The notes: generated by a model from the sequence alone, not told the origin. A stretch of DNA of 64,000 nucleotides from an uncultured Gammaproteobacteria bacterium (GCA_964627195.1 CAZVJU010000003.1:14854-78853); one strand, 5' to 3'. Shown: positions 5,412 through 62,262, counted from the first letter of the stretch. Translations and numbers: made by a program.

Positions 5412-5434
5412 TATATCACACAAGGTGTGATATA
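5412..5434. repeat. REP-like palindrome tatatcacac-aag-gtgtgatata
   Basis: Perfect palindrome. It belongs to the TATCAC-N-GTGATA family seen at seven other sites. Confidence 0.6.
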
Positions 5435-5474
5435 GCTTCACACATCCGGTAAATAAGCCGTTTTTGTTGAAGTG

Positions 5475-5667: not shown

Positions 5668-8172
5668 TTAACTCGCAGCTATGAAGGTAGAACGGGGAAA
5701 AACACGGTCTTTTTTCTTTTCTTCAACAACCGGCCACTTTTTCAGGGCAATCTTAAGTACTTCCTCCAAGCGGGAGACAAATAGAAATTTTATATCTTTC
5801 TGAACGCTTGCGGGTATATCTTCCATATCCTTCTTATTATCCTTGGGAAGAATTATTGTCTTTAACCCGGCTCGGTGACCTGCTATTACTTTTTCTTTTA
5901 CTCCGCCGATTTCAAGCGCACGACCGCGTAAAGTAATCTCGCCTGTCATGCCGACATTTCGTCTGACCGGAATTTTGGTTAAGGCCGATACCAGTGCTGT
6001 CGCCATCGCAATGCCTGCAGACGGACCGTCTTTTGGAACTGCCCCTTCAGGAACATGAATGTGGACATCAATATTGGCGACAAATTCTTCTTTTAGATTA
6101 AGTTCCTGCCAATGAGCTTTGGCCCAGGTAAAGGCCGCCTTGGCCGACTCCTTCATAACTTCCCCAAGTTGACCGGTTAAAGTCAGCTTCCCCTTGCCCG
6201 GCATCAGAGCTACTTCTATAAAAAGAATTTCGCCGCCCGAAGCCGTGACGGCAAGGCCGGTTGACATGCCAACTTCATCAACCTTTTCAGCAATTAGGGA
6301 ACTGAATTTCTGGGGCCCTAAAAATTTTCTTACGTCAGCATTTTTTATTATCATAGGAAACTTTTTCTTCTCTGCGACCAAGCGCGCGATTTTTCGACAA
6401 ACCGTTGCAAGATTTCGTTCCAAATCCCTTACTCCGGCCTCTCGGGTATATCGATTAATAATTTCATTCAAAGCATTTTTGGCCATTTTAATTCCCTTAT
6501 CTTCGAATCCATGAAGCCTAAGTTGTTTTGGCCACAAAAATTCTTCGGCGATTTTATATTTCTCATCCTGGGTATAGCCGGGGAAACGAATTACCTCCAT
6601 TCTGTCCCGAAGCGCGCTTGGAATTTTTTCCAAAACGTTACCGGTGCAAATAAACATCACTTGCGATAGATCAAAGGGAACTTCCAAATAATGATCCGAG
6701 AATTCTCTATTTTGTTCTGGGTCGAGAGCTTCAAGAAGTGCCGATGACGGATCTCCTCGAAAGTCTACTCCCAATTTATCGATCTCATCCAACATAAAAA
6801 TAGGGTTTCTGGAACCAGCATTTTTAATGCCTTGGATTATTCTTCCTGGGAGAGCACCAACATAGGTTCTCCTATGGCCTCGAATTTCCGCTTCATCCCG
6901 AATTCCGCCAAGAGACATCCTAACAAATTTCCTGCCGAGAGCTCTCGCAATTGACTTGCCGATAGAAGTTTTACCGACTCCGGGGGGTCCGATAAAACAA
7001 AGAATCGTAGGTTGGGAATCTTCTTCTTTATCTTTTTCAGTTTCTGATTGAGTTAAATTTTCACCTTGTTTAGATTTTTTTTGCGAGTTTTTTTTATGAC
7101 TCTTTTTAATTTGCATCACCGCAAGATATTCCAATATCCTCTCCTTGGCCTTATTGAGTCCAAAATGATCGTTCTCAAGAATTTCTGCAGCTTTTGAAAT
7201 GGAAACGTTATTAGGGGTAGCCACACTCCAAGGCATGTCGCAAAGCCAATCAAGATAGTTCCTGATGTAACCTCCCTCCGGATTGTGAGGTGAAAGCTGG
7301 TTAAGTCTTTTAAGTTCTTTTTCTGCTTTTTCCCGAACGTCTTTCGGCATACCAACTTCTTTGATTTTTTGTCTGTATTCTTTAAACTCTTCGGTTGATA
7401 AATCTCCTTCTTCACCTTCACCCAACTCTTCTTCGATAGTCCTTTTTTTCTCGCGAAGCATGGCTTTGCGCATTTGATCCTCAAAGCGTTTTTGAGTTTT
7501 TGAAGATATGGTATGTTCGAGCTCAAGCACGTTTACCTCCTGGGAAAGATTCTCCAAAACTTTTTGGAGCCGATCCTTTAAAGAGGTCATCTCCAATAGT
7601 TCCTGTTTTCCCTTCATTTTGGTTTCAAGAAGTGACGCAACTTGGTCCACGAGTTCATTCGGTTCTACCTTCCCGGAAACCAGCTTCATAACGGCCATTA
7701 TTTCGGCTTGCTTACCAAGGTTGATCGATTTTTTGAAAAGATCGGAAATTTTGTTTGCAAGAGCTTGAATTTCCTCGGCTGTTCCTTTCACTACTGTAGG
7801 AACTTCCTCAACTTTCGCAATTAAGTGGGGTTCTGTAGAAGTCATTTCGATTAACCTTATTCTGGCTTGGCCCCTAACTACTGCATGGATTTCACCTTCC
7901 GTAGACATCATTTGGGTTATAGTTGCTATAGTCCCAATTTTAAAAAGGTCTTCAAAATCAGGGTCAGGAATTCGAGCATCTTTCTGGGTAAAAATGCCTA
8001 CCACCCTATCTTCCTGAAAAGCAGTATTTATTGCTTCAACGCTTTTCTTCCTTCCGAAGGAGAGAACTGCGTCCGTGTGGGGAAAAACTACCGATCCGCG
8101 GATAGCGACAATCGGGATCTGCCTATAGATTATAGTTTTTTCAAGTTCAACTTTTGTTACTTCGTCTGCCAT
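5668..8172 (-). CDS. lon: ATP-dependent protease Lon
   Basis: AAA+ Walker A GPPGVGKTS is present, along with the S16 catalytic Ser context DGPSAGIAMATAL. A Lys/Glu-rich low-complexity insert lies before the AAA domain. Confidence 0.95.
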   Translation of the reverse strand: MADEVTKVELEKTIIYRQIPIVAIRGSVVFPHTDAVLSFGRKKSVEAINTAFQEDRVVGIFTQKDARIPDPDFEDLFKIGTIATITQMMSTEGEIHAVVRGQARIRLIEMTSTEPHLIAKVEEVPTVVKGTAEEIQALANKISDLFKKSINLGKQAEIMAVMKLVSGKVEPNELVDQVASLLETKMKGKQELLEMTSLKDRLQKVLENLSQEVNVLELEHTISSKTQKRFEDQMRKAMLREKKRTIEEELGEGEEGDLSTEEFKEYRQKIKEVGMPKDVREKAEKELKRLNQLSPHNPEGGYIRNYLDWLCDMPWSVATPNNVSISKAAEILENDHFGLNKAKERILEYLAVMQIKKSHKKNSQKKSKQGENLTQSETEKDKEEDSQPTILCFIGPPGVGKTSIGKSIARALGRKFVRMSLGGIRDEAEIRGHRRTYVGALPGRIIQGIKNAGSRNPIFMLDEIDKLGVDFRGDPSSALLEALDPEQNREFSDHYLEVPFDLSQVMFICTGNVLEKIPSALRDRMEVIRFPGYTQDEKYKIAEEFLWPKQLRLHGFEDKGIKMAKNALNEIINRYTREAGVRDLERNLATVCRKIARLVAEKKKFPMIIKNADVRKFLGPQKFSSLIAEKVDEVGMSTGLAVTASGGEILFIEVALMPGKGKLTLTGQLGEVMKESAKAAFTWAKAHWQELNLKEEFVANIDVHIHVPEGAVPKDGPSAGIAMATALVSALTKIPVRRNVGMTGEITLRGRALEIGGVKEKVIAGHRAGLKTIILPKDNKKDMEDIPASVQKDIKFLFVSRLEEVLKIALKKWPVVEEKKKDRVFPRSTFIAAS

Positions 8173-8230
8173 GAATTAAATATATTTTAGCAGTCTATCC
8201 TCTTGTTTGCTAAAAGTCAAGAGTCTTTCT

Positions 8231-11990: not shown

Positions 11991-12053
11991 TTTCACACCG
12001 GGTGTGTGATTCAAATTGATAATTATAAATAGGGATCACACACCCGGTGTGGC
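11991..12053. repeat. REPIN-like doublet: two 17-bp REP-like units in inverted orientation (cacaccgggtgtgtgat / atcacacacccggtgtg) separated by about 20 nt
   Basis: The two units are exact reverse complements. The doublet lies in a divergent intergenic region. Confidence 0.7.
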
Positions 12054-16381: not shown

Positions 16382-16585
16382 AACTACTTAATAACTCTTA
16401 AATTTTTATATAGCTAAATACTAGCATGTTACTGGAGAAAAATTAATCTCAACTATGATTTGGGTCACGATTTTCTGAACTACAGGTCTTCTGTGATCAC
16501 CACCAAAGTCGCAGAGAAGCGTGAGTTTTTGGTATAATTCAACTTAATATAGTGGCCGACGTAGATTCGGCCATTATTTTCGCAT

Positions 16586-16659
16586 TGAGGGATCTGCTAA
16601 TGGTAGGCAAGCGGACTCTGAATCCGTTAATCTAGGTTCGAATCCTAGTCCCTCAGCCA
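16586..16659 (+). tRNA. tRNA-Gln (anticodon CTG), CCA encoded
   Basis: 74-nt cloverleaf. The acceptor is TGAGGGA/TCCCTCA, the T-arm is CTAGG-TTCGAAT-CCTAG, the anticodon loop is CTCTGAA, and it ends in a discriminator G followed by CCA. Confidence 0.85.
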
Positions 16660-16663
16660 AATC

Positions 16664-17194
16664 ATGAAAATTATAATTAAACTCAAATATTTATTCCTCT
16701 TATTCTTCTTTCTGTTTGCCCTATTGTCAAATTATTATTTAGGTTCAAGAAATATTCAAAACGCTGCAAATGACAATTTCAATGGAGGAATATGTTACGC
16801 ATGTCAATCATGTAAAGACGTATATGAAATATGTCAAAAGAGATTTGGTTTTGATATCTATAATCTTATTTACTCTCTTATTCCTATTTCTTTTGTAATT
16901 GCTCTATTTAATAACATATATTTAAAAAGCAACCTATATAGAACGATTAAACAAAGTATATTATTGGGAATGATATGGTTAATATCTATTGAAATAATAG
17001 TAAGGATATTCCAGATCCCGGTACTTTATACTCATTTCCTTGAGGGTAGACAAAGTTTACATTATCAATTCTTTACATTATTTCCCGAATTTATTGTGAT
17101 TTTTTCTATATTTCAATCAATTATTTCAGGTGTATTTGGTTATTTCGTAGGTAGCATTACAAAACATTTCATATTAAGAAAAGTAGTAAAATAG
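16664..17194 (+). CDS. Hypothetical AT-rich membrane protein immediately downstream of tRNA-Gln
   Basis: 176-aa multi-TM protein with very low GC. It starts 5 nt after the tRNA. Confidence 0.35.
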   Translation: MKIIIKLKYLFLLFFFLFALLSNYYLGSRNIQNAANDNFNGGICYACQSCKDVYEICQKRFGFDIYNLIYSLIPISFVIALFNNIYLKSNLYRTIKQSILLGMIWLISIEIIVRIFQIPVLYTHFLEGRQSLHYQFFTLFPEFIVIFSIFQSIISGVFGYFVGSITKHFILRKVVK

Positions 17195-17228
17195 GTTCTA
17201 ATAGCGTACAAAGTGCGCAGCCAGTAAG
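17195..17228 (+). repeat. About 34-nt 3'-end element, copy D (gttctaatagcgtacaaagtgcgcagccagtaag)
   Basis: Matches the consensus of copies at 20167, 21781 and 23020. It starts immediately after a stop codon. Confidence 0.6.
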
Positions 17229-17253
17229 AATTGGAGAGAGGTCGGGAGGTAGC

Positions 17254-17337
17254 GCTTTCCGCGCCCGCCTCCGCGGAAAGCGGTAATCACCCGGTAATCA
17301 CCCGGTAATCACCCGGTAATCACCCGTCAGGTGATAT
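17254..17337 (+). repeat. GC-rich hairpin (gctttccgcg...cgcggaaagc), then 4 tandem copies of the 11-mer cggtaatcacc, ending in a REP-like palindrome atcacccgtcaggtgatat
   Basis: Read directly from the sequence. The REP unit is the inverted partner of the units at 18061 and 18107. Confidence 0.7.
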
Positions 17338-17340
17338 ACA

Positions 17341-17369
17341 TTGACACAACTCGGAAATAGACATAGGAT
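17341..17369 (+). promoter_or_regulatory. Putative promoter for the transposase gene (TTGACA-N17-TAGGAT)
   Basis: A perfect -35 with a weak -10, ending 10 nt before the ATG. Confidence 0.3.
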
Positions 17370-17378
17370 ATTATTAAT

Positions 17379-18044
17379 ATGTCTGGAAAAAGAAATGTCA
17401 TATTTGCCAAAAACGAAATCTACCACCTTTTTAATCGTTCAAATGCTAACGAATCGATTTTCGTAAAGAAAAAGGAAATCACAAGATCTCTTAACTTGAT
17501 GTCATTTTACAGATTTAATCAAAGTTTGAGATTTTCTTTTTTTGACAGACTTCCTGAAGAACAAAAAGATAAGTATTTGGAAAAGACTTTAGGAAACGTA
17601 CCAAATGTTGACATACTTTCCTACTCCTTAATGCCTAACCACTTTCATTTACTCATAAAGCAAACAAATGAAAAAGGAATAAAAAATTATCTCTCTAATT
17701 TCCAGAACAGCTTTGCGAAATATTTTAATATAAAAAATAAAAGGTTTGGAACTCTTTTTCAGAGACCTTTTAAGGCTAAACATGTAGAATCTGACGAACA
17801 ACTTCTTCACATATCAAGGTACATCCATCTTAATCCTGTTACATCCTATATGATGGAGTTTGAGAATTTGAGAAGTAGTGACTTGACCTCTTTACAATTA
17901 TATTTAGATAAAAAGAAGTCTTGGGTTAATACTGATCTAATTATTAATTTAATAGGTTCGGTATCAAAATACGAAAAATTTGTGAAAGATCATGTTGACT
18001 ATCAAAGAAAATTAAGTAAAATCAAGCACTTGTTATTAGATTAG
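17379..18044 (+). CDS. IS200/IS605-family Y1 HUH transposase, REP-associated (RAYT-like)
   Basis: The HUH motif LMPNHFHLLI is present, along with the C-terminal catalytic-Tyr block LFQRPF...ISRYIHLNPV, which parallels LWQRSY...YI.NP of TnpA IS200. The gene is flanked by inverted REP-like palindromes. Confidence 0.8.
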   Translation: MSGKRNVIFAKNEIYHLFNRSNANESIFVKKKEITRSLNLMSFYRFNQSLRFSFFDRLPEEQKDKYLEKTLGNVPNVDILSYSLMPNHFHLLIKQTNEKGIKNYLSNFQNSFAKYFNIKNKRFGTLFQRPFKAKHVESDEQLLHISRYIHLNPVTSYMMEFENLRSSDLTSLQLYLDKKKSWVNTDLIINLIGSVSKYEKFVKDHVDYQRKLSKIKHLLLD

Positions 18045-18130
18045 TAAGGTGTGTGAACCAATATCACCTGACGGGTGATACGTAGATTAGTAAGGTGTGT
18101 GAACCAATATCACCTGACGGGTGATACGCC
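18039..18130 (+). repeat. 2 x 46-bp tandem direct repeat (gattagtaaggtgtgtgaaccaatatcacctgacgggtgatacg), each containing a REP-like palindrome
   Basis: The two copies differ only at their last 2 nt. The first copy overlaps the transposase stop codon. Confidence 0.8.
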
Positions 18131-18152
18131 TCAAGAGCTAATATATCAAAAT

Positions 18153-18173
18153 ATATCACTCCCGGCGTGGATT
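18153..18173. repeat. REP-like variant tatatcactcccggcgtggat, followed by a tRNA T-loop-like ttcgaacc
   Basis: Same TATCAC...GTG family, with an imperfect right arm. Confidence 0.45.
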
Positions 18174-18195
18174 CGAACCTAATAAGACTTAATTC

Positions 18196-18870
18196 CTAAA
18201 GTTTGTAATTCGAAACTATCTCGTAACTGGCGTAGGGCACGACTTCATCATCAAAAAGGCACATTTTTATTTCCGGCCAGCAATTATCTAAAGCTTTGAT
18301 TTCTTGAATCGAGTACCACTTCACTCCTTCCAGTAACTTCATTGATTCTTTTTCGGTAGGGGTTATTTCAACCTGAAACATGACCTGACCGTCATCAAAA
18401 AGGGATTCACCATCAAGGGTTTTAACGATTTTAGCGTGAAGAGATTTATATTCAAATCTGACTGAGGGGATTTCAATCCCAGTATTCTCTTTAAAGAGTC
18501 TCACTAAGGCAGCTTCCATCGGTTCACCAAACATAGGCCGGCCACTGGGGAAGTTATAGAAATTAATTTTGGCGGTAGGGTGACTTTTTAGTAAATAGTT
18601 GCCGTGACCATCGTGAACAATAAAGCCACAAAAAAAGGTTTTTATTCCCTGCTCACTCAGATCAGATAATTCATAGTTATAAATTTCCTTAATTCCGGTT
18701 GGGGTAATAGCATAGGTATTGTCTTCTTTTTCGATAAATTGATTCTCCAGCAACTGGTTCAGGTGGAAGACTATATTGTTTTCGAAGTTATATCCCCGGG
18801 TTAAAGCCGCATATTTCTGGTTATTTTGTTGGGCAAGCCTTTTAAGTAATACCTTTTGGGTACGGTGCAT
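18196..18870 (-). CDS. wHTH-Nudix-like protein (N-terminal winged-helix-like region plus degenerate Nudix box), paralog 1
   Basis: The block GRPMFGEPMEAALVRLFKENTGIE fits a degenerate Nudix box Gx5Ex7R..E..GI. Much of it aligns by eye with 24670..25344, which has the same 224-aa length. Confidence 0.5.
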   Translation of the reverse strand: MHRTQKVLLKRLAQQNNQKYAALTRGYNFENNIVFHLNQLLENQFIEKEDNTYAITPTGIKEIYNYELSDLSEQGIKTFFCGFIVHDGHGNYLLKSHPTAKINFYNFPSGRPMFGEPMEAALVRLFKENTGIEIPSVRFEYKSLHAKIVKTLDGESLFDDGQVMFQVEITPTEKESMKLLEGVKWYSIQEIKALDNCWPEIKMCLFDDEVVPYASYEIVSNYKL

Positions 18871-19136
18871 AATTTAGTGTAGTTTACTACTCTAGATACG
18901 TTCCTTGGTAGTTGATAAATTACCGCCAAGTATGGAAAACTTAATGGGACAATTAACCGAAGAGGAGCTAGTCAAACACTTATCGCCGGTTGAAAAATGA
19001 CTTTATCGGTCAAGTGATAGGCAAGAGCAGTTGAATATTCTCTGTAATTCAAGTTGGGTTAATACTATCGGCCTTATCATTGAAAAGACGGCCGGACTTG
19101 GCCACCCAACTGATATAATTTTAGGAGGATAAACTT

Positions 19137-19505
19137 ATGTTTAAACAAATGTTTGCTAACTGCATTTTAGTCAAAGATTTTGAAAAATCTTTAGATTTTT
19201 ATCAAAACACATTAGGTTTGGAGCTAAATACCAGAGAGGGTAACTTTGCCAATTTTAAAATTGATAATATCGAGTTGGCGATCATGCAGCAAGACCAAGC
19301 CACCGAAATGCTGCCTAAAGATTTCATGAATAGCGGTGGAAGTGTACTGCTTTGTTTTCAGGTAAGTGACGTGGATAAAACTTGTTCGGACTTGCAAGCC
19401 AAAGGTATAAAGTTTATTTCCGGTCCCAAAGTGACTTCCTGGGGGCAAACCGTAGCCTATTTCCTTGACCCGGACAATAATATTTGGGAAATCTCCAAAA
19501 AATGA
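19137..19505 (+). CDS. VOC/glyoxalase-bleomycin-resistance family protein, paralog 1
   Basis: 122-aa VOC fold pattern. It is preceded by an AGGAGG RBS and is paralogous to 25447..25824. Confidence 0.65.
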   Translation: MFKQMFANCILVKDFEKSLDFYQNTLGLELNTREGNFANFKIDNIELAIMQQDQATEMLPKDFMNSGGSVLLCFQVSDVDKTCSDLQAKGIKFISGPKVTSWGQTVAYFLDPDNNIWEISKK

Positions 19506-20134
19506 TTAAAGCAATTATTTTTGATTACGATGAAACGCTGGTGCAAACTCTTGATGCCCGGATCCAGGCTTATATCCAGTTGGCTAAACAGGAATATCAC
19601 TTTGATTTAAAAGAGGAGGCGATTAGAAAGGCTTTTGGATTACCATACGAGGTGTTTATTAAAACCCTTTTTAGCGAGGTTGATAGCGTCGAGAATATTA
19701 TTGGCAACTATCAAAAAATCACTCCCAATTTTCCCAATAAAGCCTACCCCCAAGCAGTGGAGACCGTCAATAAATTATTGACCAAATATTTGGTGGGCAT
19801 TATAAGCGGCTCAAGGCGAAAAATGATGATAGAGGATTTACATAAGCTCCAATTCCTGGTGGATAAATTCTTTTATATTCAGTCTGGGGAAGACACTGCT
19901 GTTCATAAACCAGATCCAAAAGTGTTTGACCCTTTAATTCAAAAGCTAAAGACTTTGGCTATTAAACCGAAAGAAGCTTTATATGTCGGCGACGACTTGC
20001 GGGACCGTGAAGCCAGCACCAAAGCGGGGATGCAATATATCGCAATTGCCAATCACACCACAGAGGCTAAGGTGTTTGAAAGTCAGAAGATTCCTTATGT
20101 CTTGAGTTTCGATGAACTTAACCGTAAATACTGA
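19502..20134 (+). CDS. HAD-superfamily hydrolase
   Basis: Motif I is IIFDYDETL and motif IV is VGDDLRD. The start at MIKAII overlaps the VOC stop as ATGA. The ORF track places an upstream Met at 19484. Confidence 0.75.
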   Translation: MIKAIIFDYDETLVQTLDARIQAYIQLAKQEYHFDLKEEAIRKAFGLPYEVFIKTLFSEVDSVENIIGNYQKITPNFPNKAYPQAVETVNKLLTKYLVGIISGSRRKMMIEDLHKLQFLVDKFFYIQSGEDTAVHKPDPKVFDPLIQKLKTLAIKPKEALYVGDDLRDREASTKAGMQYIAIANHTTEAKVFESQKIPYVLSFDELNRKY

Positions 20135-20166
20135 AAGCAGGGTATGTCCGGTTACCCATGTAGTAG

Positions 20167-20195
20167 GTTCGAATAGAGTCCACGCAGGCCAGCAA
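20167..20195 (+). repeat. About 34-nt 3'-end element, copy A (degenerate: gttcgaatagagtccacgcaggccagcaa)
   Basis: Shares the GTTCGAA...GTCCAC...CAGCC.AGCAA blocks with copies B, C and D. Confidence 0.5.
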
Positions 20196-20371
20196 ATTCA
20201 AATTTCCAGAAAAGAAAATTTGCTACCGATATTGTATCCTTATGTTTCCATATTAAACTGGTTCGGCCCCCCAATTGACCTTTTCTTTTGAGCTACCATA
20301 ACTTTAAATGAATATTACTTGCAACAAGGATATTTGTTTGATTACGTTACCTATATAAGAATGATGTAATG

Positions 20372-21274
20372 TTAACGTTCCTTACTCAATCCAATGCGAA
20401 TTGAGGCTTGACCTTCTTTCACTACCTTATCAATAACAATAACTCGTTCCATAGGCTCCATTTCTCTTACACTTCTAGCCTCATTTATCTGAAAAACACC
20501 ATTTTCAATCTCTCTTAATGCGGCAATTGTATTTGCAATCATGATGCCATTGTCGCCATCTTCTGCATAATATAAATACGGCCGATGATAGACGAGACCA
20601 TCTTCTCTGCTTCCTCTTCGTAATCCATATAATTTCAAGTTATTACCTTCTTTTCTTAACAACAAAGAATGAATTAGAGTCGGAATTTCATGCAATATCA
20701 TAGTCGCATTTACGTCTGATTCTGCTAGGATATTTTCAATCCAGTTAATTGTAAAAAGCACTCGATCATCTCTATTGAAATCTTGCGTACATTTTTTAAT
20801 ACCTAACCTTTCCGCAATTTCTGGAATTCGTTTACTCGTTTTTGGACTTTCCTCCAGGACCCACGATAAATTAGCGCAAACCGCTAACCCAGTAGTATCA
20901 GTAAAGCCAATGGCTGGGCTTTCTGTTTTATCCCAAGCCTGTGTTTGTTCAGCAAAAACGAATTGAAACTTAGTTTCACTTAATCCGCACGCATCAAATA
21001 CCTCAAACAAACTGATATTTGAAGAGTAAGTTGCTGTTAGTAACTGGCTATTTGTTAGAAATGTATGTTTAGTTAGAGATAATGAATACCTTTCGTCCAT
21101 TATCTTCATTTCTTCGAAATAACAGTCGTCAAAATTTGCGATTAACATCCCCATCGTTGTTCCAAAATCAGCGTAGTGTCCGGGTTTATGATAATTTCTC
21201 ATTTGCTCAAGTGCAGATGAGACATTACCTAATGCTATAGGTTTATTGTGAATATATGATAAGACAGTAGACAT
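20372..21274 (-). CDS. Hypothetical protein (300 aa), unrecognised family
   Basis: Long clean ORF with composition distinct from the neighbouring AT-rich small genes. No motif recognised. Confidence 0.4.
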   Translation of the reverse strand: MSTVLSYIHNKPIALGNVSSALEQMRNYHKPGHYADFGTTMGMLIANFDDCYFEEMKIMDERYSLSLTKHTFLTNSQLLTATYSSNISLFEVFDACGLSETKFQFVFAEQTQAWDKTESPAIGFTDTTGLAVCANLSWVLEESPKTSKRIPEIAERLGIKKCTQDFNRDDRVLFTINWIENILAESDVNATMILHEIPTLIHSLLLRKEGNNLKLYGLRRGSREDGLVYHRPYLYYAEDGDNGIMIANTIAALREIENGVFQINEARSVREMEPMERVIVIDKVVKEGQASIRIGLSKER

Positions 21275-21459
21275 GATGAAGAATTATAAACAAAACAGAC
21301 TAAGTCTGCAAACTGTTTAAATTGAGGAAGAGTTTGATAATTAATTGTCGCCAATAATTCGTTTCAAGGTATGAAGTATTTCAAAAATAGATTTAATATT
21401 CTTCCAGATGTGGTTCCACCTACGGACAAGCTCGCCAGCCAAGATGTATAATTGAATAA

Positions 21460-21780
21460 ATGAAAAAGTCTTTGTTAACTTCACTATTGTTTGCATTTAT
21501 ACTTCTCAATCTCAGTTGGTTTTATGCAAAAAGTGTTACTTGCAGTGGTGGTTCACTTTCAGTAATCAGTTTTGCTAATGGTTGCCAGCCAGGACAAATA
21601 GTATATTATGTCCGCGGTTTTCCTATTGAATTCTTTTGGAGTAACAACACCGGCTTTGTACTTTTTTGGTATTTAATTGACTATTTAATATTTTTTATTT
21701 TTGTTCAATTGTTATTAACAATTATTAGGTTATTTAAATTAAAGCTATCAGATAGTTCTAATGATAAGTTAAGAAAATAA
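21460..21780 (+). CDS. Small hypothetical membrane protein
   Basis: 106 aa with 2 TM segments. It is followed directly by 3'-element copy B. Confidence 0.35.
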   Translation: MKKSLLTSLLFAFILLNLSWFYAKSVTCSGGSLSVISFANGCQPGQIVYYVRGFPIEFFWSNNTGFVLFWYLIDYLIFFIFVQLLLTIIRLFKLKLSDSSNDKLRK

Positions 21781-21814
21781 GTTCGAACAGCGTCCACAGT
21801 TCGCAGCCAGCAAT
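21781..21814 (+). repeat. About 34-nt 3'-end element, copy B (gttcgaacagcgtccacagttcgcagccagcaat)
   Basis: Starts at the nucleotide after the TAA stop. It has an internal inverted repeat cgaac...gttcg. Confidence 0.65.
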
Positions 21815-21898
21815 GAACAAATTATCTCGGTTTGCCAAGCTAATACAAACCCGGAATGGTAAATTTAACACGCTAAAATTACGAAGTATAATTTAATT

Positions 21899-22690
21899 GT
21901 GAGACGTTTTTTACTGATAGTTACATTTCTGATTTTTTACGTCTTGTTTCTGAGATTACCTGTCTTAAAAACAAAGGTGCAAGGAAACAATTTCTACTAT
22001 AGGGATTTATTGGGATTTATTTATACACGACATTCTAGTTGTGGATGGATAGGGCCATGTTCTCATTGGGATGTGCCATTATTAGGTATACACAGTTTCA
22101 CATTTAAAACTTTAAAGTATAGTGGGTTGGATTGTTTAGATGCTTACGCAAAGTCAAACACTGCCCTTTACTATTTAGGCGAAAAACAACATCAGGTCAA
22201 AAGCCCCGCAACTTTTGAGTTAATGAATAATATGTATGCTAAAGATTCAGCAAACGTTTATAAACTTTGCGAACTAGAAGTTTTAAACATCGCCGAGCCG
22301 GATCGGTTTATAACAGTAGGGCCTGTTTGCTCAAAAAGCACCACCAGTGTTTACTGCTTTCAAAAAGAAGTAGAAAATGCAGATATAAATTCTTTCGAAC
22401 ATGTGTGGAGAGGATATTACAAAGATAAAAACAAGATTTATTTTTTAGGTAAACCATTAGGTGAGATCGATCCTGATACTTTCGAGTTATTGTCATGGGG
22501 ATACCTTAAAGATAAAAATGCCATTTTCTTTTTCGACGAGAATGCAAAGGAGTTAACCGAATTAAAGAGCGCGGATAAAACCACTTTTAAAGTATTAACT
22601 GAAATGTATGCAGTTGATGCTTCACACGTTTTCAAAAGCGGGATTGTGTTATCACATACAAATCCTAAAATCTTTAAAGTACCTCAATGA
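21899..22690 (+). CDS. DKNYY-repeat family protein, N-terminal TM anchor
   Basis: Repeated YxxDxNxVY/F blocks: AKDSANVYKL, YKDKNKIYFLG, LKDKNAIFFFD and YAVDASHVFKSG. GTG start. Confidence 0.55.
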   Translation: MRRFLLIVTFLIFYVLFLRLPVLKTKVQGNNFYYRDLLGFIYTRHSSCGWIGPCSHWDVPLLGIHSFTFKTLKYSGLDCLDAYAKSNTALYYLGEKQHQVKSPATFELMNNMYAKDSANVYKLCELEVLNIAEPDRFITVGPVCSKSTTSVYCFQKEVENADINSFEHVWRGYYKDKNKIYFLGKPLGEIDPDTFELLSWGYLKDKNAIFFFDENAKELTELKSADKTTFKVLTEMYAVDASHVFKSGIVLSHTNPKIFKVPQ

Positions 22691-23019
22691 CACTAAACGG
22701 TTCCAGACCGGCCTGCTCAGCAAATAATATTAAGACAAAAACATCCGTACGAATTTGCTATCATTTGCTTATGGGTAGAGTACAGAATTTTTTGAGGCCA
22801 AGTATTAGAAGAATAATATTTGCGTTAATAATATGGCTTGTATTGTGGCTTGTGTCCTATTTTTTTACCGCCAAATGTTTCTTAGCTGACTGTATAAGCG
22901 ATGGTCAAATGACTTCCTGCTGTAGTTCTCTTGAAAATAAAATCGCTGAACTTTTCTACACTATCAAGTTATCTTTTCCAGTAATCGCATACTTATTGTC
23001 TTGTAAATTAACAAAATAG
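22687..23019 (+). CDS. Small hypothetical membrane protein
   Basis: 110 aa. It overlaps the upstream gene by 4 nt and is followed directly by 3'-element copy C. Confidence 0.35.
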   Translation: MTLNGSRPACSANNIKTKTSVRICYHLLMGRVQNFLRPSIRRIIFALIIWLVLWLVSYFFTAKCFLADCISDGQMTSCCSSLENKIAELFYTIKLSFPVIAYLLSCKLTK

Positions 23020-23052
23020 GTTCGAACTCTGTCCACAGTTCGCAGCTCAGAT
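23020..23052 (+). repeat. About 34-nt 3'-end element, copy C (gttcgaactctgtccacagttcgcagctcagat)
   Basis: Starts at the nucleotide after the TAG stop. It has an inverted repeat cgaact...agttcg. Confidence 0.65.
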
Positions 23053-23341
23053 TCCAGCGAGGTGACCGTGGTCTCTTAAAAAGCCCATGTTCTCGCCACA
23101 AGTCGGAAATATTTAAGTCGACATTCGTACTACACCCTCGTTGTCCAGTAAAATGCCATGAAATAGGCATATTTTGATAAGTTATAAGGATAGATCGGTG
23201 ATATTTTAAGCAGAAATTCTCTCTGGAAGCCAAGTATGGCGTTCATGACTTAATTCACCCATAAAATAGGATTCGAACCAAACTATCCTATATTTTATAG
23301 AAAATGACCTGAATTTTTATATTTTTTGCTATAATCCGTCT

Positions 23342-24046
23342 ATGGCTCAGGAAAAAGAAATAAAAATACTTTTAAACATCGATCTTGACGAATTTGTAAA
23401 AAGAATTCAGAAAAAAGGTTATAAATTACAACACATATTAAAACAAACTGATATCTATTTTGATACCAAAAACTGGTTTCTTTATAAAAACATTGCTGCC
23501 CTCAGGTTAAGGCAAATAGACAATAAAGACAGCTCGTTCTCTTTTAAGAAAGTTTTTTATTTACCCAAGAAAAAGGACTATTACATTGAAGAAATTGAAG
23601 TTAAGTTTCCATTTAAGGACTATGCCAAGCTGAAAGAAATTTTCGAAAGAGTAAATATACCATTTAAGGAAAGTGTTTTTAAAAGTGGATCTGAACTCAC
23701 AAAGTACTTATCTGGCTACAAATATTTTGACAAGCAAAAGATGCCAAAAATAAGAAGCGTATATTCCGATGGAGAAGATGAAATAACAATTGATAATGTC
23801 GAAAACGTAGGAATAATAGTTGAGTTGGAATGTCTGGAAAACGATCCTTTCCATATAATTAAAACTATTTTGAAAAACAAAGAATGGAACAGAAGTTTAG
23901 AAGGGACAAGCTATATTTGGTTAAGAAAGGTGAAAGGCTTAACTTCGCATTTGTCGAACTTGGAGAGATTCAAAACCGAACCTGATTGGAATGTTTGGGA
24001 AAACGAAAGAGCTATGTATACCAAAATGCTGAATGGTAAAATGTAA
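23342..24046 (+). CDS. CYTH-domain protein (class IV adenylate cyclase / triphosphate tunnel metalloenzyme family)
   Basis: The N-terminal ExExK signature is present (QEKEIKIL). The length and pattern fit a CYTH fold. Confidence 0.6.
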   Translation: MAQEKEIKILLNIDLDEFVKRIQKKGYKLQHILKQTDIYFDTKNWFLYKNIAALRLRQIDNKDSSFSFKKVFYLPKKKDYYIEEIEVKFPFKDYAKLKEIFERVNIPFKESVFKSGSELTKYLSGYKYFDKQKMPKIRSVYSDGEDEITIDNVENVGIIVELECLENDPFHIIKTILKNKEWNRSLEGTSYIWLRKVKGLTSHLSNLERFKTEPDWNVWENERAMYTKMLNGKM

Positions 24047-24084
24047 AGATAAGATAATTTGAAACTGACTTATTAAATAAATTA

Positions 24085-24483
24085 ATGTCGCTTAATATTA
24101 AAGAGATCGGAAAACTTTTTAAAACAGAGATTGTTTACTTGGCAACTTCTGATTTACAAGGCAATCCGCACGTAAAACCGATTTGGTTTGTGTACTACAA
24201 AGGAAAAATCTGGTTTGAAACAGATATTATTACAAGAGCTTTCAAAAACATCAAGGAAAATAACAAAATTATGCTCTGCTTTGGAGGACGTGAGACTTAT
24301 CTAATCTGGGGAAGCGTTAAATGGTATAAAGAAAAAGATGCACAAGTTCCTTTCAGAAAAATGTTTTGGGAGAAGTATGGTAAAGATATGGACGATAGTT
24401 ATATCACCGAAAAAACCAGAATTTTTGAGGTGATAATTACCAAAGAAATGTCCTGGCACTACGCCGACCAAAACTGGGAATAA
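24085..24483 (+). CDS. Pyridoxamine 5'-phosphate oxidase-like FMN-binding split-barrel protein
   Basis: The block VYLATSDLQGNPHVKPIWFVYYKGKIWFET is typical of the PNPOx-like family. Confidence 0.6.
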   Translation: MSLNIKEIGKLFKTEIVYLATSDLQGNPHVKPIWFVYYKGKIWFETDIITRAFKNIKENNKIMLCFGGRETYLIWGSVKWYKEKDAQVPFRKMFWEKYGKDMDDSYITEKTRIFEVIITKEMSWHYADQNWE

Positions 24484-24523
24484 TTCTCCACTTTTCCCTA
24501 ACCAATTGAAACTAAATAGTTTC

Positions 24524-24642
24524 ATAGAAGTCCACAGCTAAAGCCGTGGTCCTTCGAGCTTCATTCGCCTTAGGCGAATGAATTTTCAATGATTCAATTC
24601 ATCCACGTCCAAAGACGTGAACTTCTTGAATTAGCTTAAAAG
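24524..24642 (+). repeat. MITE-like multi-hairpin element, copy 1 (119 nt)
   Basis: Terminal inverted repeats agaagtccac / gtgaacttct. Internal hairpins are ccacagc..gccgtgg, cattcgcc-tta-ggcgaatg and cacgtc-caaa-gacgtg. Copies also at 27473 and 62196. Confidence 0.75.
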
Positions 24643-24669
24643 TATTAACTTTTGAAGTAGGTTAATAAC

Positions 24670-25344
24670 TCAATCTAGAATATAATCTGATACAAATTCA
24701 TATTGTAAGTAATTGGCTCTATTATTTTGAACTAATAAGATATCTAACTCTGGCCATTTATTAGTTAGGTCTCTGATTTTCTCAAGGTTCATCCATTGAA
24801 TCTGTCTTCCCAGTTCCATTTTCGATCTATGGCTAGGATTTACGATTACTTGATAAATTGCAAAAGCGTCATCAAATAAAACTTCACCGGTTGATGTTTT
24901 TATAGTCTTTAAATGTAAGCTTAAATACTTGAAATTATTTGACTCAACTTCTAGACCAGTGTTTTCATAGAAAATACGAATTAAAGCTTTTTCAGTGTTT
25001 TCCCCAAAATGAGGCTTTCCACTCGGTAAGTTATAGAAATTTGTTTTTCCTCCCGGATGCTCCTTTACCAAAAAGTCATCTCCTGATTTACACACGAAGC
25101 CGATAAAAAATGTTTTGAAACCAGTGTCAGTTAATGAACTTAAATCGTATTTAGCAATTTCTTTAATTCCCACGGAACTAATCTTGTAAATATTGCTTGT
25201 CTTTTCTATAAATCCTTTTTTCAGGAGTTGTTTTAAGTGGAAGACAATATTATCTTCAAAGCTATAACCCCCTGTTAAAGAAGAATACTTTTGGTTGTTA
25301 TTTATTAACAGCCTCTTAAGAAATATCTTTTGGATTTCATGCAT
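24670..25344 (-). CDS. wHTH-Nudix-like protein, paralog 2
   Basis: 224 aa, alignable by eye across most of its length with 18196..18870. Same divergent arrangement with a VOC gene. Confidence 0.5.
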   Translation of the reverse strand: MHEIQKIFLKRLLINNNQKYSSLTGGYSFEDNIVFHLKQLLKKGFIEKTSNIYKISSVGIKEIAKYDLSSLTDTGFKTFFIGFVCKSGDDFLVKEHPGGKTNFYNLPSGKPHFGENTEKALIRIFYENTGLEVESNNFKYLSLHLKTIKTSTGEVLFDDAFAIYQVIVNPSHRSKMELGRQIQWMNLEKIRDLTNKWPELDILLVQNNRANYLQYEFVSDYILD

Positions 25345-25446
25345 AAATAGTAAGCTTAATTATAAGGCAACTTGGTGTAGCCGACTACCCTAGATAAATT
25401 AGTGTCAAAACGGTATTCTAGCTATGTTTGGAAGGAGGTGAGACCC

Positions 25447-25824
25447 ATGTTTAATAAACTATTCGCTGTTTGCCTTTTGGTTAATGATTTTGAAAAATCT
25501 TTTAAGTTTTATAAGGAAACCTTAGGACTAAAAGTAAAATCTCAAGAGGGAAAATTTGCTAATTTTAAATTAGGGGAAACCGAACTTGCTGTTTTCCAGA
25601 AAGATGAAGCAATAGCGATGTTCCCCAAGGAACATATGGGGAGTGGAGGTGGTGTTTCAATTGGTTTTCAAGTAGATAATGTAGAAAGAACTTGTAAAGA
25701 GTTAAAATCAAAAGAGGTAGAAATTTTTGAAGGACCAAAAAAAACTCCCTGGGGTCAGGAAGTGGCATATTTCAAAGATCCTGATGCAAATATCTGGGAG
25801 ATTTCTGAGCCTTTTGAAGAGTAA
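25447..25824 (+). CDS. VOC/glyoxalase family protein, paralog 2
   Basis: Homologous to 19137..19505. The start at MFNKLFAV is preceded by a GGAGGTGA RBS. The ORF track gives a longer ORF from 25402. Confidence 0.65.
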   Translation: MFNKLFAVCLLVNDFEKSFKFYKETLGLKVKSQEGKFANFKLGETELAVFQKDEAIAMFPKEHMGSGGGVSIGFQVDNVERTCKELKSKEVEIFEGPKKTPWGQEVAYFKDPDANIWEISEPFEE

Positions 25825-27450: not shown

Positions 27451-27472
27451 TTATAAGCAGGTTTGAAACATA

Positions 27473-27621
27473 ATAGAAGTCCACGGCTTTAAGCCGTGGT
27501 CCTTCGAGCTACATTCGCCACAGGCGTTTGAATTTTCAATGATTCAATTCATCCACGTATAAGCAAAGCTTGGCACCGCTTCGCGTTGTAAAGACGTGGA
27601 CTTCTTGAATTAGCTTAAAAG
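27473..27621 (+). repeat. MITE-like multi-hairpin element, copy 2 (149 nt, with a 31-nt internal insertion)
   Basis: Same termini and hairpins as copy 1. The first hairpin is perfect: ccacggc-tttaa-gccgtgg. There is an extra ataagcaaagcttggcaccgcttcgcgttgt inside the third hairpin. Confidence 0.75.
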
Positions 27622-27662
27622 GTTCTAGATTGGACTGACCAGTCAGTAAGAAGTAAAAATAT

Positions 27663-27697
27663 CCAGGTGTGTCTATCTGTATCACTCCTGATGTGAT
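27663..27697. repeat. Composite REP-like element: ccaggtgtgtctatct followed by tatcactcctgatgtgat
   Basis: Both halves recur at 30969-30984 and 31075-31094. There they are separated by a hairpin-rich 90-nt insert. Confidence 0.6.
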
Positions 27698-29193
27698 TTG
27701 ATATAGAGGTAAAAGGGAAGAGAATCGGAGTCCAACTTCTTTAAGTTGGGTAGATTAGCCTGGTCTGATAATAATATTCCATCATTCGGTAAAGTTTCCT
27801 TTTGTTCGTCTATTACACCGGGTAGTTTGGGAAAATAGATTGCTCTTGCGAATAGTTCGGGGTCTTTAATGTTTACGCCATCCAATCGTGCTACTCTGGT
27901 AGACAAAAAAGGCTGCAATTGTCTTTCCTTTACCTTTAGGTAAAGCTCTTTATATGGCTTATTGTAATCTTCAAGATGGTAAAAGATGTGATAAGTATCT
28001 TTGGGGTAGATAAACATATAATACCGCCAGAAATCAAAGTAATTAATCGTTATTAAGAAAAATAAAATGAAGCCAGTGTATTTAAATAAGCGATTTTTGT
28101 TATCTAATATCATTTTGATCCCTAGTGTAAAAAATATTGAGTAGAAAGGGACCATATAAAGTAAGCGATGTGCAAAAAAGGTTGAACCCACAAAACCAAA
28201 CAGGAGAGGGGAAATAAGAAAAGTTATCCCAAGTAATCTTAAATAATCAGAACCATTCCTGAATGTTTGATATATGCCGATTGCAAATATGGGCAGAGTG
28301 GATAAAAGGAACATCCCATGGCGCAGGGTTGATTGGACCAATAATTTATCGCCGGTAATAAATAAAAACGAGATGTCAAAGCTGGCTAAATAATAATAAA
28401 AGAAACTATATAGTGAGCTAATATTAAAACTTACACGATTTAGTACGGCGCCTCCGTAATAGTGTTCTAATAATGGAATTACGGCAAAAAACGGGAGCGC
28501 GGTTAAGGTAAATGTAAAAAGCGGTACTAAAAACTTCTTTCTAGTTAGAGTTTTTAAAGAAAGTTTTTGAGCCGGCCGGTTGAGATAAGAAATGTAGCCA
28601 ATGCTAATTAAAATCCAAATAGCTACCAACGGTCTTATCCCACCGTATGCATAAAAACCAGTACCCAAACTGAGAGCTGCAAAGATTAAATATTTATTAT
28701 CAAAACTTCGTCTGTATTTGAATAAACTGATTAGCCAAAGCAAAACAAAAGTAACCACAATCATATGTTCATATGGTGTATGAGTTACGATCATTACTTC
28801 AGGAATAATTATAAAAGAGATTAAGGTTATAAATGCGGATTTTTTGTCAAATAAAAGCCTGGCAAAATATAAAGTCAGAAGGGCAGAAATAACCGTAATT
28901 ACTACAGTTGCCAAACGCAATACGTAAACAGAAGGACCGAAGAGTTTAAAAAGCAAGGCAACCAAATACTGCATATATGGCGGATACCAAGTTACATTAT
29001 TTGATCCGAGAATAAATAGTGGTAAAAATCGTCCATGCGCATCGCGTAAGTTTTGAGCTAGTAAAATGCCATTATAGCCGTATGATGCCTCGTCTTCAGT
29101 AATACCGTTTGGAGTATCGGCAAGTCGGAAGGAGAAGAAAATAAATAAGAAAATTATTAAAATGCCTATAGAAAGGAAGGTTTTCGGTTTCAT
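27682..29193 (-). CDS. GT39/GT83-type (PMT/ArnT-like) integral-membrane glycosyltransferase
   Basis: 503-aa polytopic protein. The N-terminal DE-containing loop GITEDEASYGYNGILLAQNL is typical of PMT_2/ArnT-like enzymes. Confidence 0.65.
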   Translation of the reverse strand: MKPKTFLSIGILIIFLFIFFSFRLADTPNGITEDEASYGYNGILLAQNLRDAHGRFLPLFILGSNNVTWYPPYMQYLVALLFKLFGPSVYVLRLATVVITVISALLTLYFARLLFDKKSAFITLISFIIIPEVMIVTHTPYEHMIVVTFVLLWLISLFKYRRSFDNKYLIFAALSLGTGFYAYGGIRPLVAIWILISIGYISYLNRPAQKLSLKTLTRKKFLVPLFTFTLTALPFFAVIPLLEHYYGGAVLNRVSFNISSLYSFFYYYLASFDISFLFITGDKLLVQSTLRHGMFLLSTLPIFAIGIYQTFRNGSDYLRLLGITFLISPLLFGFVGSTFFAHRLLYMVPFYSIFFTLGIKMILDNKNRLFKYTGFILFFLITINYFDFWRYYMFIYPKDTYHIFYHLEDYNKPYKELYLKVKERQLQPFLSTRVARLDGVNIKDPELFARAIYFPKLPGVIDEQKETLPNDGILLSDQANLPNLKKLDSDSLPFYLYIKSHQE

Positions 29194-30968: not shown

Positions 30969-31094
30969 CCAGATGTGTCTATCTACAGATGTCACATTTT
31001 GAAATCGGACTAAAATGTGACATATGCTATAGAAATCACCACTAATATAGTCCTACTTCATAATGTGATTTCTATATATCACTCCTGGTGTGAT
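30969..31094. repeat. Interrupted composite REP-like element: ccagatgtgtctatct, two nested inverted repeats, then tatatcactcctggtgtgat
   Basis: The inverted repeats are tgtcacatttt/aaaatgtgaca and atagaaatcac/gtgatttctat. Compare the compact version at 27663-27697. Confidence 0.55.
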
Positions 31095-33159: not shown

Positions 33160-33257
33160 CTCGCCCTGTGAGAGATAAGTTTTCCACACATAGTTGTGAA
33201 TTGGCTTGGCACAAGTTGAGTTTAAAGGTGAGGCTAAGCAGCAATATACCCCATAGT

Positions 33258-60705: not shown

Positions 60706-62196
60706 ATGCAATTAACACAAAAGGGTAAAGTTTACGCGTTAATTCTTCTCACCTCAGCACTTTTTTCGATTTCTGTAGTTACTTTCGGGTTTTTCCCCTA
60801 TTTTGGCCTCTCCGTATCCTTTATTGCTTTTATCTTTTTAGCCTACTATATAAAGAAAGATAAAACTCCGCTCGCTAAAATGTTCTTTCTTATTGCTCTT
60901 ATTCTGTCTGTCTTTTTAGCAATAAGAAGCGAGGGTGGGATAATTCTTCTTAATCTTGGCGCAATTTTCTACTTCGGAGCGCTTACACTACTATCCGAAA
61001 AGGAAAGTAGATTGGATAATTGGATTTATATATTTATAGCGCCTTTTTTTCTTTTTTCAAAAAGTCTTTTTACCAAAAATGACTATAATTTTGAATTAAA
61101 AAATTCTTTGACAAGAAAAGAAGGAGCTGAAAAAGTCATAAATTCACTTGTCGTAACCCTTGTAACCATATTAGTATTGGTCATTATTATCCCACTATTG
61201 GCTTCCGTAAACCCTTTCTTCGAAAAAATAGTTAGTAATCTGATAGACACACTTAGGCTACGGGATATTAAAATTACGGAAAAGTTATTCGAATGGAGTC
61301 TGAGGCTGGCATTTTTCTTTTTTCTCGTACTAATCGTCCCCAAATTGGCAACTTTTGTTAATAAGAAGTCTGGTCTTTCAGTCCTTTCATATCCGTCTTT
61401 TAATCTTTTAGTACCGAAAATTGCAGTAGCCTTGGTATTATCATTATTTTTTGTAACTCAACTTCAATTATATTTTTCTTCCGCCCAAACGCTGCAGGAT
61501 TTGGGGTACACCTACTCAAAATACACAAGAGAAGTTTTTGCTCAACTTTCGTTTGTGGCCGTTATTATCTTAGGCCTGATATATAACGATCAAACGAAAC
61601 AAAAAATAAATAGAAATTTAACCGTAGCGCTGGCAATTCAAGGGCTATTTCTAACATTTATGGCCTACAAAAGCGTTTATGAATATAGTATGGCCTGGGG
61701 TTTTACTTATAAAAGACTATTCGGTTTTACTATTGCCACTTGGATTTTGGGTGTATTTGCCATCTATCTGTTTACTTTTTACAGAAATCTTGGAAAAGGC
61801 ATATTCATCGTCCGGACTCTCATTTTCTCAGGACTAGTTCTTATTGCAGTAAACGCTTTAAACTTTGACTACCTCATCTATCATTTTCGAAAAGCTTCAA
61901 CTGGACAGGGAGTTGATCACAAGTATCTCACACGACTCTCAAGCGACTCCCTTTCATACAAAAATCAGCTTTACGAAATTACCCAGATATCCTCGGAAAC
62001 ACTAAGTGAGTCAGAAAAAAACCAAGCCGCCTCATACGGTTTATGGATGCTGCTTTATAAGATCGAACGATTACAGGAAAAATATGACAAACTTGATGTT
62101 CGAGGTTTTAACCTGCTGGAATATTTGCAATATCGGCAAATCAAAGATATAGACACCCAAATAGTCAGAAATAAATATGGGTTGCCTTTCCGCTAA
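60706..62196 (+). CDS. Polytopic membrane protein (DUF4153/4173-like), hypothetical
   Basis: 496 aa with more than 10 TM segments. Its stop codon overlaps the start of MITE-like copy 3. Confidence 0.35.
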   Translation: MQLTQKGKVYALILLTSALFSISVVTFGFFPYFGLSVSFIAFIFLAYYIKKDKTPLAKMFFLIALILSVFLAIRSEGGIILLNLGAIFYFGALTLLSEKESRLDNWIYIFIAPFFLFSKSLFTKNDYNFELKNSLTRKEGAEKVINSLVVTLVTILVLVIIIPLLASVNPFFEKIVSNLIDTLRLRDIKITEKLFEWSLRLAFFFFLVLIVPKLATFVNKKSGLSVLSYPSFNLLVPKIAVALVLSLFFVTQLQLYFSSAQTLQDLGYTYSKYTREVFAQLSFVAVIILGLIYNDQTKQKINRNLTVALAIQGLFLTFMAYKSVYEYSMAWGFTYKRLFGFTIATWILGVFAIYLFTFYRNLGKGIFIVRTLIFSGLVLIAVNALNFDYLIYHFRKASTGQGVDHKYLTRLSSDSLSYKNQLYEITQISSETLSESEKNQAASYGLWMLLYKIERLQEKYDKLDVRGFNLLEYLQYRQIKDIDTQIVRNKYGLPFR

Positions 62197-62262
62197 TAGA
62201 AGTCCACATCTTATGCCGTGGTCCTTCGAGCTACATTCGCCTTCGGCGAATGAATTTTCATT
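62196..62262 (+). repeat. MITE-like multi-hairpin element, copy 3 (truncated: left arm plus first two hairpins)
   Basis: atagaagtccacatcttatgccgtggtccttcgagctacattcgccttcggcgaatgaattttca. It diverges where the convergent gene 62258..63025 ends. Confidence 0.65.

Follow-up and report, generated by a model that had tools for sequence, protein, structure and literature searches.

The 64,000-nucleotide stretch of DNA analysed here (GCA_964627195.1, CAZVJU010000003.1:14854-78853; hereafter the window, with positions counted from its first letter) belongs to a Patescibacteria (Microgenomates) bacterium with a tiny genome of ~1 Mb, and it contains one gene, and only one, for a Y1 HUH tyrosine transposase or nuclease, which lies between short hairpin-bearing ends in inverted orientation (Table 1). 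Gene and ends together are, in our assessment, probably a low-copy class-2 Y1 HUH element of the TIRtron/REPtron type. A preliminary description of the locus had taken the gene for a tyrosine transposase of the kind associated with repetitive extragenic palindromes (REPs), a RAYT, that mobilises a REP/REPIN family dispersed across the window; its account of the gene and of the adjoining DNA largely stands, and its account of dispersal and inheritance is not supported here.

Table 1. The Y1 element and related end-like or hairpin sequences in the window. R1 is a covariance model built from 18 ends, with which the window was scanned with filters off; ssDNA, single-stranded DNA.
Feature	Position	Strand	Remarks
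Diverged solo end	5413..5455	+	Hairpin TATATCACAC-AAG-GTGTGATATA and TTCACAC box; intergenic, downstream of tRNA-Glu; R1 27.2 bits, E = 8e-6; ssDNA fold z = -4.2
Inverted doublet of 13-nt hairpins	11994..12051	.	CACAC-CGG-GTGTG / CACAC-CCG-GTGTG; intergenic, REPIN-like shape; no ACAC box by the model; R1 not significant
GC-rich hairpin	17253..17282	.	11-bp stem; just outside the 11-mer array; membership of the element uncertain
Tandem 11-mer	17281..17324	+	(CGGTAATCACC)x4; each unit matches the outer (left) hairpin arm of the left end; 3 or 4 copies in the population
Left end	17317..17359	+	Hairpin ATCACC-CGTCA-GGTGAT (17319-17335), ATACA, TTGACAC box (17341-17347); R1 48.9 bits; ssDNA fold -5.2 kcal/mol
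Promoter-like sequence	17341..17369	+	TTGACA-17 nt-TAGGAT; 10/12 matches in a consensus scan; putative function
Y1 HUH tyrosine transposase/nuclease gene	17379..18044	+	221 aa; class-2 (RAYT/TIRYT-like); HUH = H88-F-H90; catalytic Y148; N152-P153
Exact 46-bp tandem duplication	18037..18128	+	Whole right end including last codon and stop (GAT TAG); x1 or x2 in the population
Right end, copy 1	18039..18081	-	GGTGTGTGAA box and hairpin; inverted counterpart of the left end; R1 44.9 bits
Right end, copy 2	18085..18127	-	Identical to copy 1; R1 44.9 bits; inverted repeat with the left end
Hairpin-only relative	18154..18172	+	TATCACTCCCGGCGTGGAT; lies 26 nt beyond the right end; variant shared with the left hairpin of homologue locus L038
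Diverged solo end	27657..27699	-	AGGTGTGTC box and TATCAC-N7-GTGAT; overlaps the stop codon of ORF 27682..29193 (-); R1 23.2 bits, E = 1.3e-4
Hairpin-only relative	31077..31094	+	TATCACTCCTGGTGTGAT; intergenic
Marginal end-like match, doubtful	33181..33224	+	R1 15.8 bits, E = 0.02 (rough E-value)

The Y1 Gene and Its Protein

The open reading frame (ORF) encodes both the LMPNHFHLLI motif that holds the HUH residues and the C-terminal tyrosine block ISRYIHLNPV, exactly as the preliminary description had it, and the Y1 transposase identity that was proposed on this ground is borne out by a profile search, in which residues 73-150 match Pfam Y1_Tnp (PF01797) with 33.9 bits against a gathering score of 23. 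An alignment of 37 homologues shows no variation at H88, H90, Y148, N152 and P153, nor at Y15, H16, N19, Q109, N110 and S171. The stretch Y148-IHL-N152-P153 constitutes the Y---NP signature, which defines class 2 of the TnpAY1 enzymes, class 1 being defined by Y---Q (PMC6006769). The HUH/Y1 fold of the protein agrees with that of both TnpA-REP, the RAYT of Escherichia coli, and IS608 TnpA; the best structural match is TnpA-REP (PDB 4ER8), which fits better than the TnpA proteins of IS608, ISDra2 or IS200. The protein is thus a Y1 HUH enzyme that is RAYT-like rather than IS200-like, in line with what had been claimed for it.

Sequence identity to TnpA-REP amounts to only 9-10%, and a PDB sequence search with the family profile returned nothing beyond ISDra2 TnpA at E = 0.04 and spurious matches to CdtB; the kinship to TnpA-REP is visible only at the level of the fold. 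Nor does the protein qualify as a RAYT proper, as had been assumed: it scores 45.8 bits with the NCBIfam RAYT equivalog NF047646 (REP_Tyr_transpos), under the cut-off of 80. The DNA ends lack a GTAG foot. Pfam gave no match at E <= 1 to a C-terminal helix-turn-helix (HTH)/DnaA_C-like domain; the structural model shows three short C-terminal helices (residues 186-214). Searches of PADLOC and PHROGs returned no match for the protein, Rfam gave nothing relevant on 16400-24700, and no tnpB gene was seen beside the Y1 gene. Three ORFs of equal length (221-222 aa, at 10599, 11292 and 63041) were checked as further Y1 genes of the window, and none is related.

The Ends and Their Conservation

The 19-mer palindrome ATCACCCGTCAGGTGATAT occurs once on the left (17319-17337, +) and twice, reversed, on the right (18061-18079 and 18107-18125), and its core, ATCACC-N5-GGTGAT, has three matches in the window against a chance expectation of 0.05. 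The inverted bracket that the preliminary description had noted therefore stands, although the two right-hand copies had each been drawn 2 nt too long; the four tandem 11-mers and the GC-rich hairpin on the left and the exact 46-bp duplication on the right are likewise present as reported. The inverted repeat extends past the palindrome to 33 nt with 85% complementarity (17319-17351 against 18047-18079). The -35 hexamer TTGACA falls within the left end, the -35/-10 pair stands 10 nt before the ATG, and TTGACA / TAnnnT is found likewise in the homologue loci L011 and L014. The right end has no T-run terminator, and the borders of the 46-bp duplication show no microhomology. At the homologous position in other lineages no counterpart of the GC-rich hairpin was seen.

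We compared the ends of the window with those at the loci of eight homologues, whose proteins are 52-75% identical to that of the window. The alignment covers 18 ends from nine lineages (proteins 48-75% identical to that of the window). These ends align nearly gap-free, and the inverted-hairpin bracket is kept in all nine lineages. Their common plan consists of a 13-nt hairpin of the CACCC-N3-GGGTG type at the outer edge, a spacing of 9-10 nt, and an ACAC(A/C)C box, which reads TTGACAC on the left, with the same arrangement mirrored on the right. The hairpin loop is the same at both ends in most lineages and different between lineages; in the window lineage the loop-closing pair has been lost and the stem has been lengthened by A-T and T-A at its foot. 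A conserved GT[AG]G at the hairpin foot is absent on either side of the 18 aligned ends.

Some short-read contigs of homologues stop in or just outside a Y1 end (the start of L037, the end of L041, and the start of L042/L043), L037 starting within the left end, 44 nt ahead of the gene, and L041 ending 77 nt after the gene; breaks of this sort would be expected from ends that are present in several copies in the genomes concerned.

Relation to Known Class-2 and IS200/IS605 Systems

Within class 2, subclass 2.1 is distinguished by the motifs NH[YF]H and Y[IV]HLNP, by FQ instead of WQ/WE, by a length of ~238 aa, and by a Ser that is conserved beyond the Y motif (Quentin et al. 2018, PMC6006769); it corresponds to the Group 1 RAYTs (Bertels et al. 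2017, PMC5581495) and probably to the TIRYTs, or 'TIRtrons' (Di Nocera et al. 2013, PMC3733652). The published survey found no REPs with subclass 2.1, and the group has been described with terminal inverted repeats (TIRs) rather than with classical REPs (PMC6006769, PMC3733652). The window protein, with NHFH, LFQ, YIHLNP and a conserved S171 in a C-terminal extension, and with 221 aa in a group of about 220-240 aa, resembles this subclass, a placement at the level of the motifs in the published table. The low copy number is a further point of likeness, and so, in part, are the long imperfect TIRs beside the gene, which in the group can be self-complementary or can build small repeat families; those of the window measure 33-43 nt, and their box, GGTGTGTG or GGGGTGTC, is one position off the published motif GGGGWSAS, which many TIRs of the group contain. 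The 13-nt hairpin at the outer TIR edge with its tandem outer arm sets the window apart, being undescribed for the group, and the C-terminal HTH/DnaA_C domain of the group was not detected by Pfam in the window protein. The element appears to represent a Patescibacteria-specific clade of known class-2 Y1 elements, by its motifs closest to subclass 2.1 / TIRYT.

E. coli TnpA-REP with its REPtron (subclass 2.2 / Group 2) differs in its DNA: it has a GTAG guide tetranucleotide, long bulged stems and hundreds of dispersed REPs, whereas the window has no such tetranucleotide, stems of 5-7 bp and no comparable dispersal.

An ordinary autonomous insertion sequence of the IS200/IS605 family that happens to be present once would account for the Pfam match, for the hairpins in the ends and for the label 'transposase', which some sources give it, and the TnpA proteins of this family (IS608, ISDra2; subclass 1.1) do share the HUH/Y1 core fold and subterminal DNA hairpins. 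They are, however, characterised by Y---Q where the window has Y---NP, by a core of ~150 aa that 221 aa greatly exceeds, by non-inverted ends in place of inverted repeats, by multiple copies, and often by a tnpB partner; no identical copies in other contexts accompany the window gene, and its fold fits TnpA-REP better. We regard this explanation as very improbable.

Position of the Element in Related Genomes

The exact Y1 protein occurs on 18 contigs from several samples; 11 distinct places were recorded, and the gene neighbourhood is identical in them (10 of the 11 shown). Beyond the exact protein, the neighbourhood differs in each homologue examined, also in the two that are closest (75% and 67% identity). 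In L011, housekeeping genes are found 2.5 kb away from the Y1 gene; in the window, the distance is 23 kb, and between these two loci the Y1 protein is 62% identical and the genes of the glutamyl-tRNA synthetase (GluRS) block are 55-70% identical. The HAD-glyoxalase-NUDIX block that adjoins the element is kept in two Shapirobacteria-like relatives, in which no Y1 gene or R1-type end is present near it (within 16.7 kb and 6.8 kb, respectively). Over the time that divides genera from one another, the unit has therefore either changed place or undergone gain and loss, and the vertical inheritance at one locus that the preliminary description had anticipated is not supported here.

Dispersal of Ends and Hairpins

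The gene had further been presented as the source of activity for a palindrome family dispersed across the window. All three exact copies of the palindrome in the window flank the Y1 gene. A search for the 19-mer in species-representative genomes, a collection without the source genome, yielded chance matches only, in GC-rich genomes, and a search of JGI metagenomes yielded one true match, a 1.6-kb contig (L029) that represents the same locus, the rest being chance. Five of the chance matches (L018, L021, L024, L025 and L033) fall in a conserved FabG-like coding stretch (…Y-I-T-R-Q-V-I-S-V-N-G-G) of GC-rich Proteobacteria, so exact-match scans for short palindromes catch coding convergences.

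Relaxed patterns do reveal relatives in the window. CACNC-N3-GNGTG has 5 matches against 0.19 expected and TATCAC-N7-GTG has 7 sites against 0.29 expected, all of these hairpin sites being intergenic or at gene ends, whereas a loose TCAC...GTGA pattern is not enriched (11 against 8.7 expected); the enrichment is confined to the constrained hairpin geometry. The R1 model found the three flanking ends, two significant diverged solo ends and one marginal match. Among the homologue loci, only L014 and L036 have extra ends, and six of the nine lineages have none beyond their own. L014 contains a solo right end that carries ~25 nt of the 3' end of the gene, and L036 contains 5-6 extra copies in 20 kb, doublets included, among them a gene-less combination of left end and right end of ~125 bp (8103-8228) that retains the stop-codon region. 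Derivatives of the element thus exist, but in the window they are few and old, and there is no high-copy REP family; as the diverged end-like copies number only 2-3 and hairpin-only relatives are few, the gene could serve at best a low-copy version of the dispersed system that had been proposed.

The classical RAYT/REPIN arrangement, in which a domesticated, immobile and vertically inherited RAYT mobilises high-copy dispersed REP/REPIN hairpins, draws on much of what has been described: the RAYT-like fold, the inverted hairpins around a gene present at a single locus, the intergenic enrichment of related hairpins, the inverted doublet at 11994-12051 and the extra copies and doublets of L036. 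It is nonetheless unlikely, given that the exact palindrome is found nowhere else in 64 kb and, in the metagenome with this locus, at the locus only; that full ends are so few in the window and missing beyond the gene's own in most lineages; that the GT[AG]G foot is absent and the REP_Tyr_transpos score too low; that the locus is not conserved in relatives; and that the motifs are those of a subclass for which the published survey recorded no REPs.

A match of a different kind came from L031:1123-1141, on contig Ga0272448_1021400 (GC 0.36), which is a CRISPR array of 70 repeats (repeat GTTTCAATCCTTGTTTTCTTGGAAGATGGTTTGAGAC). Its spacer ATTATATCACCTGACGGGTGATTGTGAGCTACAAT contains a 21-nt match to the end hairpin of the window (TATATCACCTGACGGGTGATT). 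Some CRISPR system may have sampled DNA with a Y1-type end, which would hint that such ends also travel on targeted DNA; a chance match is possible.

Hypervariable Repeats at the Ends

Repeat variation was read from 11 copies of the locus, in which the gene shows 0 nt differences and the surroundings 0-4 mismatches per ~5 kb (in one copy, 12 in 7 kb). Among these near-identical copies all four combinations of 11-mer number (x3 or x4) and 46-mer number (x1 or x2) are present. Assembly artefacts are unlikely to be responsible, because the repeats are shorter than the k-mers of the assemblers. A second lineage behaves in the same way, with (TGATAGGGTG)x3 in L014 and x2 in L015 where the genes are identical. 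Duplications beside an end occur in all nine lineages: repeats of the outer arm with a spacing of 10-11 nt in the window, L041, L042, L038 and L014, and whole-end duplications in the window (46 nt), L036 (62 nt) and L039 (25 nt). This recurrence of duplications across lineages suggests that the ends are hot spots of repeat change, through either enzyme action or hairpin-promoted slippage.

Another explanation holds the flanking inverted repeats to be regulatory DNA, the left one an operator or promoter and the right one a structure at the transcript end; the Y1 protein would have been recruited to another task on single-stranded DNA, and the tandem repeats would have arisen by slippage. Short units in perfect tandem favour slippage; the left end holds a good -35/-10 pair just before the start codon, with TTGACA recurring in homologues; and the Y1 protein is conserved about as well as the housekeeping genes of the GluRS block. 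The right end, however, carries this box and hairpin too, turned the other way round, at a place that needs no promoter, and there is no T-run terminator; solo ends and a gene-less unit of left and right end exist away from any Y1 gene; and the 46-bp duplication lacks microhomology at its borders. We hold this explanation to be improbable, more so than the RAYT/REPIN arrangement.

That the element is active now, with the Y1 enzyme repeatedly nicking and rejoining DNA at its own hairpin ends, is conceivable but rather doubtful. If true, such activity would explain why outer-arm repeats and whole-end duplications arise independently in each lineage and vary among otherwise identical genomes, and Patescibacteria would provide, in genomes of only ~1 Mb, a natural RAYT-type system of minimal size whose ongoing end processing could be read directly from metagenomes.

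A Model of the Element

The reading that we favour is that of a low-copy class-2 element. One gene, for a RAYT-fold endonuclease/ligase of single-stranded DNA, lies between two inverted ends of ~43 nt. Each end has a hairpin of 13 nt, which belongs to the CACCC-N3-GGGTG family and reads AT-CACC-CGTCA-GGTG-AT in the window, and, at a distance of 9-10 nt on its inner side, an ACAC(A/C)C box; the left end also supplies the -35 hexamer of what is likely the promoter of the gene. If the enzyme works as TnpA-REP and IS608 TnpA do, it would bind the hairpins in single-stranded DNA, for example on the lagging-strand template, use Y148 and a metal ion bound by H88, H90 and N152 to cleave beside them, and finally rejoin the strands. 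Over evolution the whole unit would have moved to new loci, and the by-products of its activity would be solo ends, tandem duplications of a whole end and, in one relative at the least, mini-elements of left end plus right end that lack the gene; we infer that the end repeats, too, are such by-products rather than the outcome of plain replication slippage.

Several points weigh against this model. No cleavage, excision junction or circular intermediate has been observed, so that the action of the protein on these ends is an extrapolation from related enzymes. The hairpins are short and, as single-stranded DNA, modestly stable (about -5 kcal/mol, z about -2), the conservation of the TTGACA box could stem from a promoter role alone, and variation in repeat number can arise by replication slippage alone, without an enzyme. 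Loss of synteny at 55-75% protein identity could reflect general rearrangement in fast-evolving genomes and not transposition. Copy numbers, finally, refer to the 64-kb window and the homologue loci, and not to a genome-wide count.

Host Range and Significance

A database search with the Y1 protein returned 3398 proteins at E <= 0.001, the best 120 of which are ~221 aa long and, wherever named, belong to Patescibacteria or Microgenomates (Woesebacteria, Gottesmanbacteria, 'Microgenomates group'); an exhaustive phmmer search of representatives of clusters at 50% identity found 179 of them with the threshold set to E <= 1e-30 and 13,100 with E <= 1e-3. Class-2 TnpAY1 genes have been found to favour large genomes, Patescibacteria lying outside the surveys concerned (PMC6006769, PMC5581495, PMC3733652), and we found no paper that ties a RAYT, REPIN or TIRYT to Patescibacteria or the Candidate Phyla Radiation. 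Patescibacteria as host therefore come as a modest surprise, and the remark in the preliminary description that the host is unusual for a RAYT-type gene was fair.

The find leaves the general picture of class-2 Y1 elements unchanged. These enzymes, RAYTs and TIRYTs alike, are widespread, and their activity in vivo and their benefit are unclear; what is added is a well-conserved class-2 Y1 clade, of at least 179 clusters at the above thresholds, now seen in reduced genomes of ~1 Mb. The element, a single gene between two ends of 43 nt with a hairpin of 13 nt, is unusually easy to read and offers a compact candidate for the biochemistry of hairpin-guided cutting of single-stranded DNA, and its ends, which change faster than point mutations accumulate, could be used as a population-genomic marker in uncultured bacteria.

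Neighbouring Genes and Other Repeats

Beside the element, at 18196-19505, lies a divergent pair of genes, a 224-aa protein that resembles a winged helix-turn-helix-NUDIX fusion and a glyoxalase, of which a paralogous copy is found ~6 kb away at 24670-25824 (46-54% identity by tblastx). A 224-aa gene downstream of the Y1 gene in L017 was considered as a match to the downstream 224-aa gene of the window and does not match it. Directly after the hairpin at 18157, GGATTCGAACC (18165-18175) is the reverse complement of the tRNA T-loop consensus; it was rejected as a tRNA remnant or attachment site, ARAGORN finding no tRNA, the stems being unpaired and the surroundings lacking a tRNA fold.

Two further repeat families occur in the window. 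A repeat of ~45 nt, AAAATAGGTTCGAACAGCGTCCACAGTTCGCAGCCAG, is present at 17179-17221, 21765-21807 and 23004-23046, at the 3' ends of three + strand genes, its first copy standing just upstream of the Y1 element; it holds a CGAAC...GTTCG hairpin and has no Rfam match. An intergenic repeat of 80-150 nt (24522-24642, 27471-27621 and 62194-62280) is unrelated to the Y1 ends; inside it lies the hairpin TTCATTCGCC-TTA-GGCGAATGAA, at its termini stand the inverted sequences AGAAGTCCACG / CGTGGACTTCT, and it has the look of a miniature inverted-repeat transposable element or of a structured RNA.
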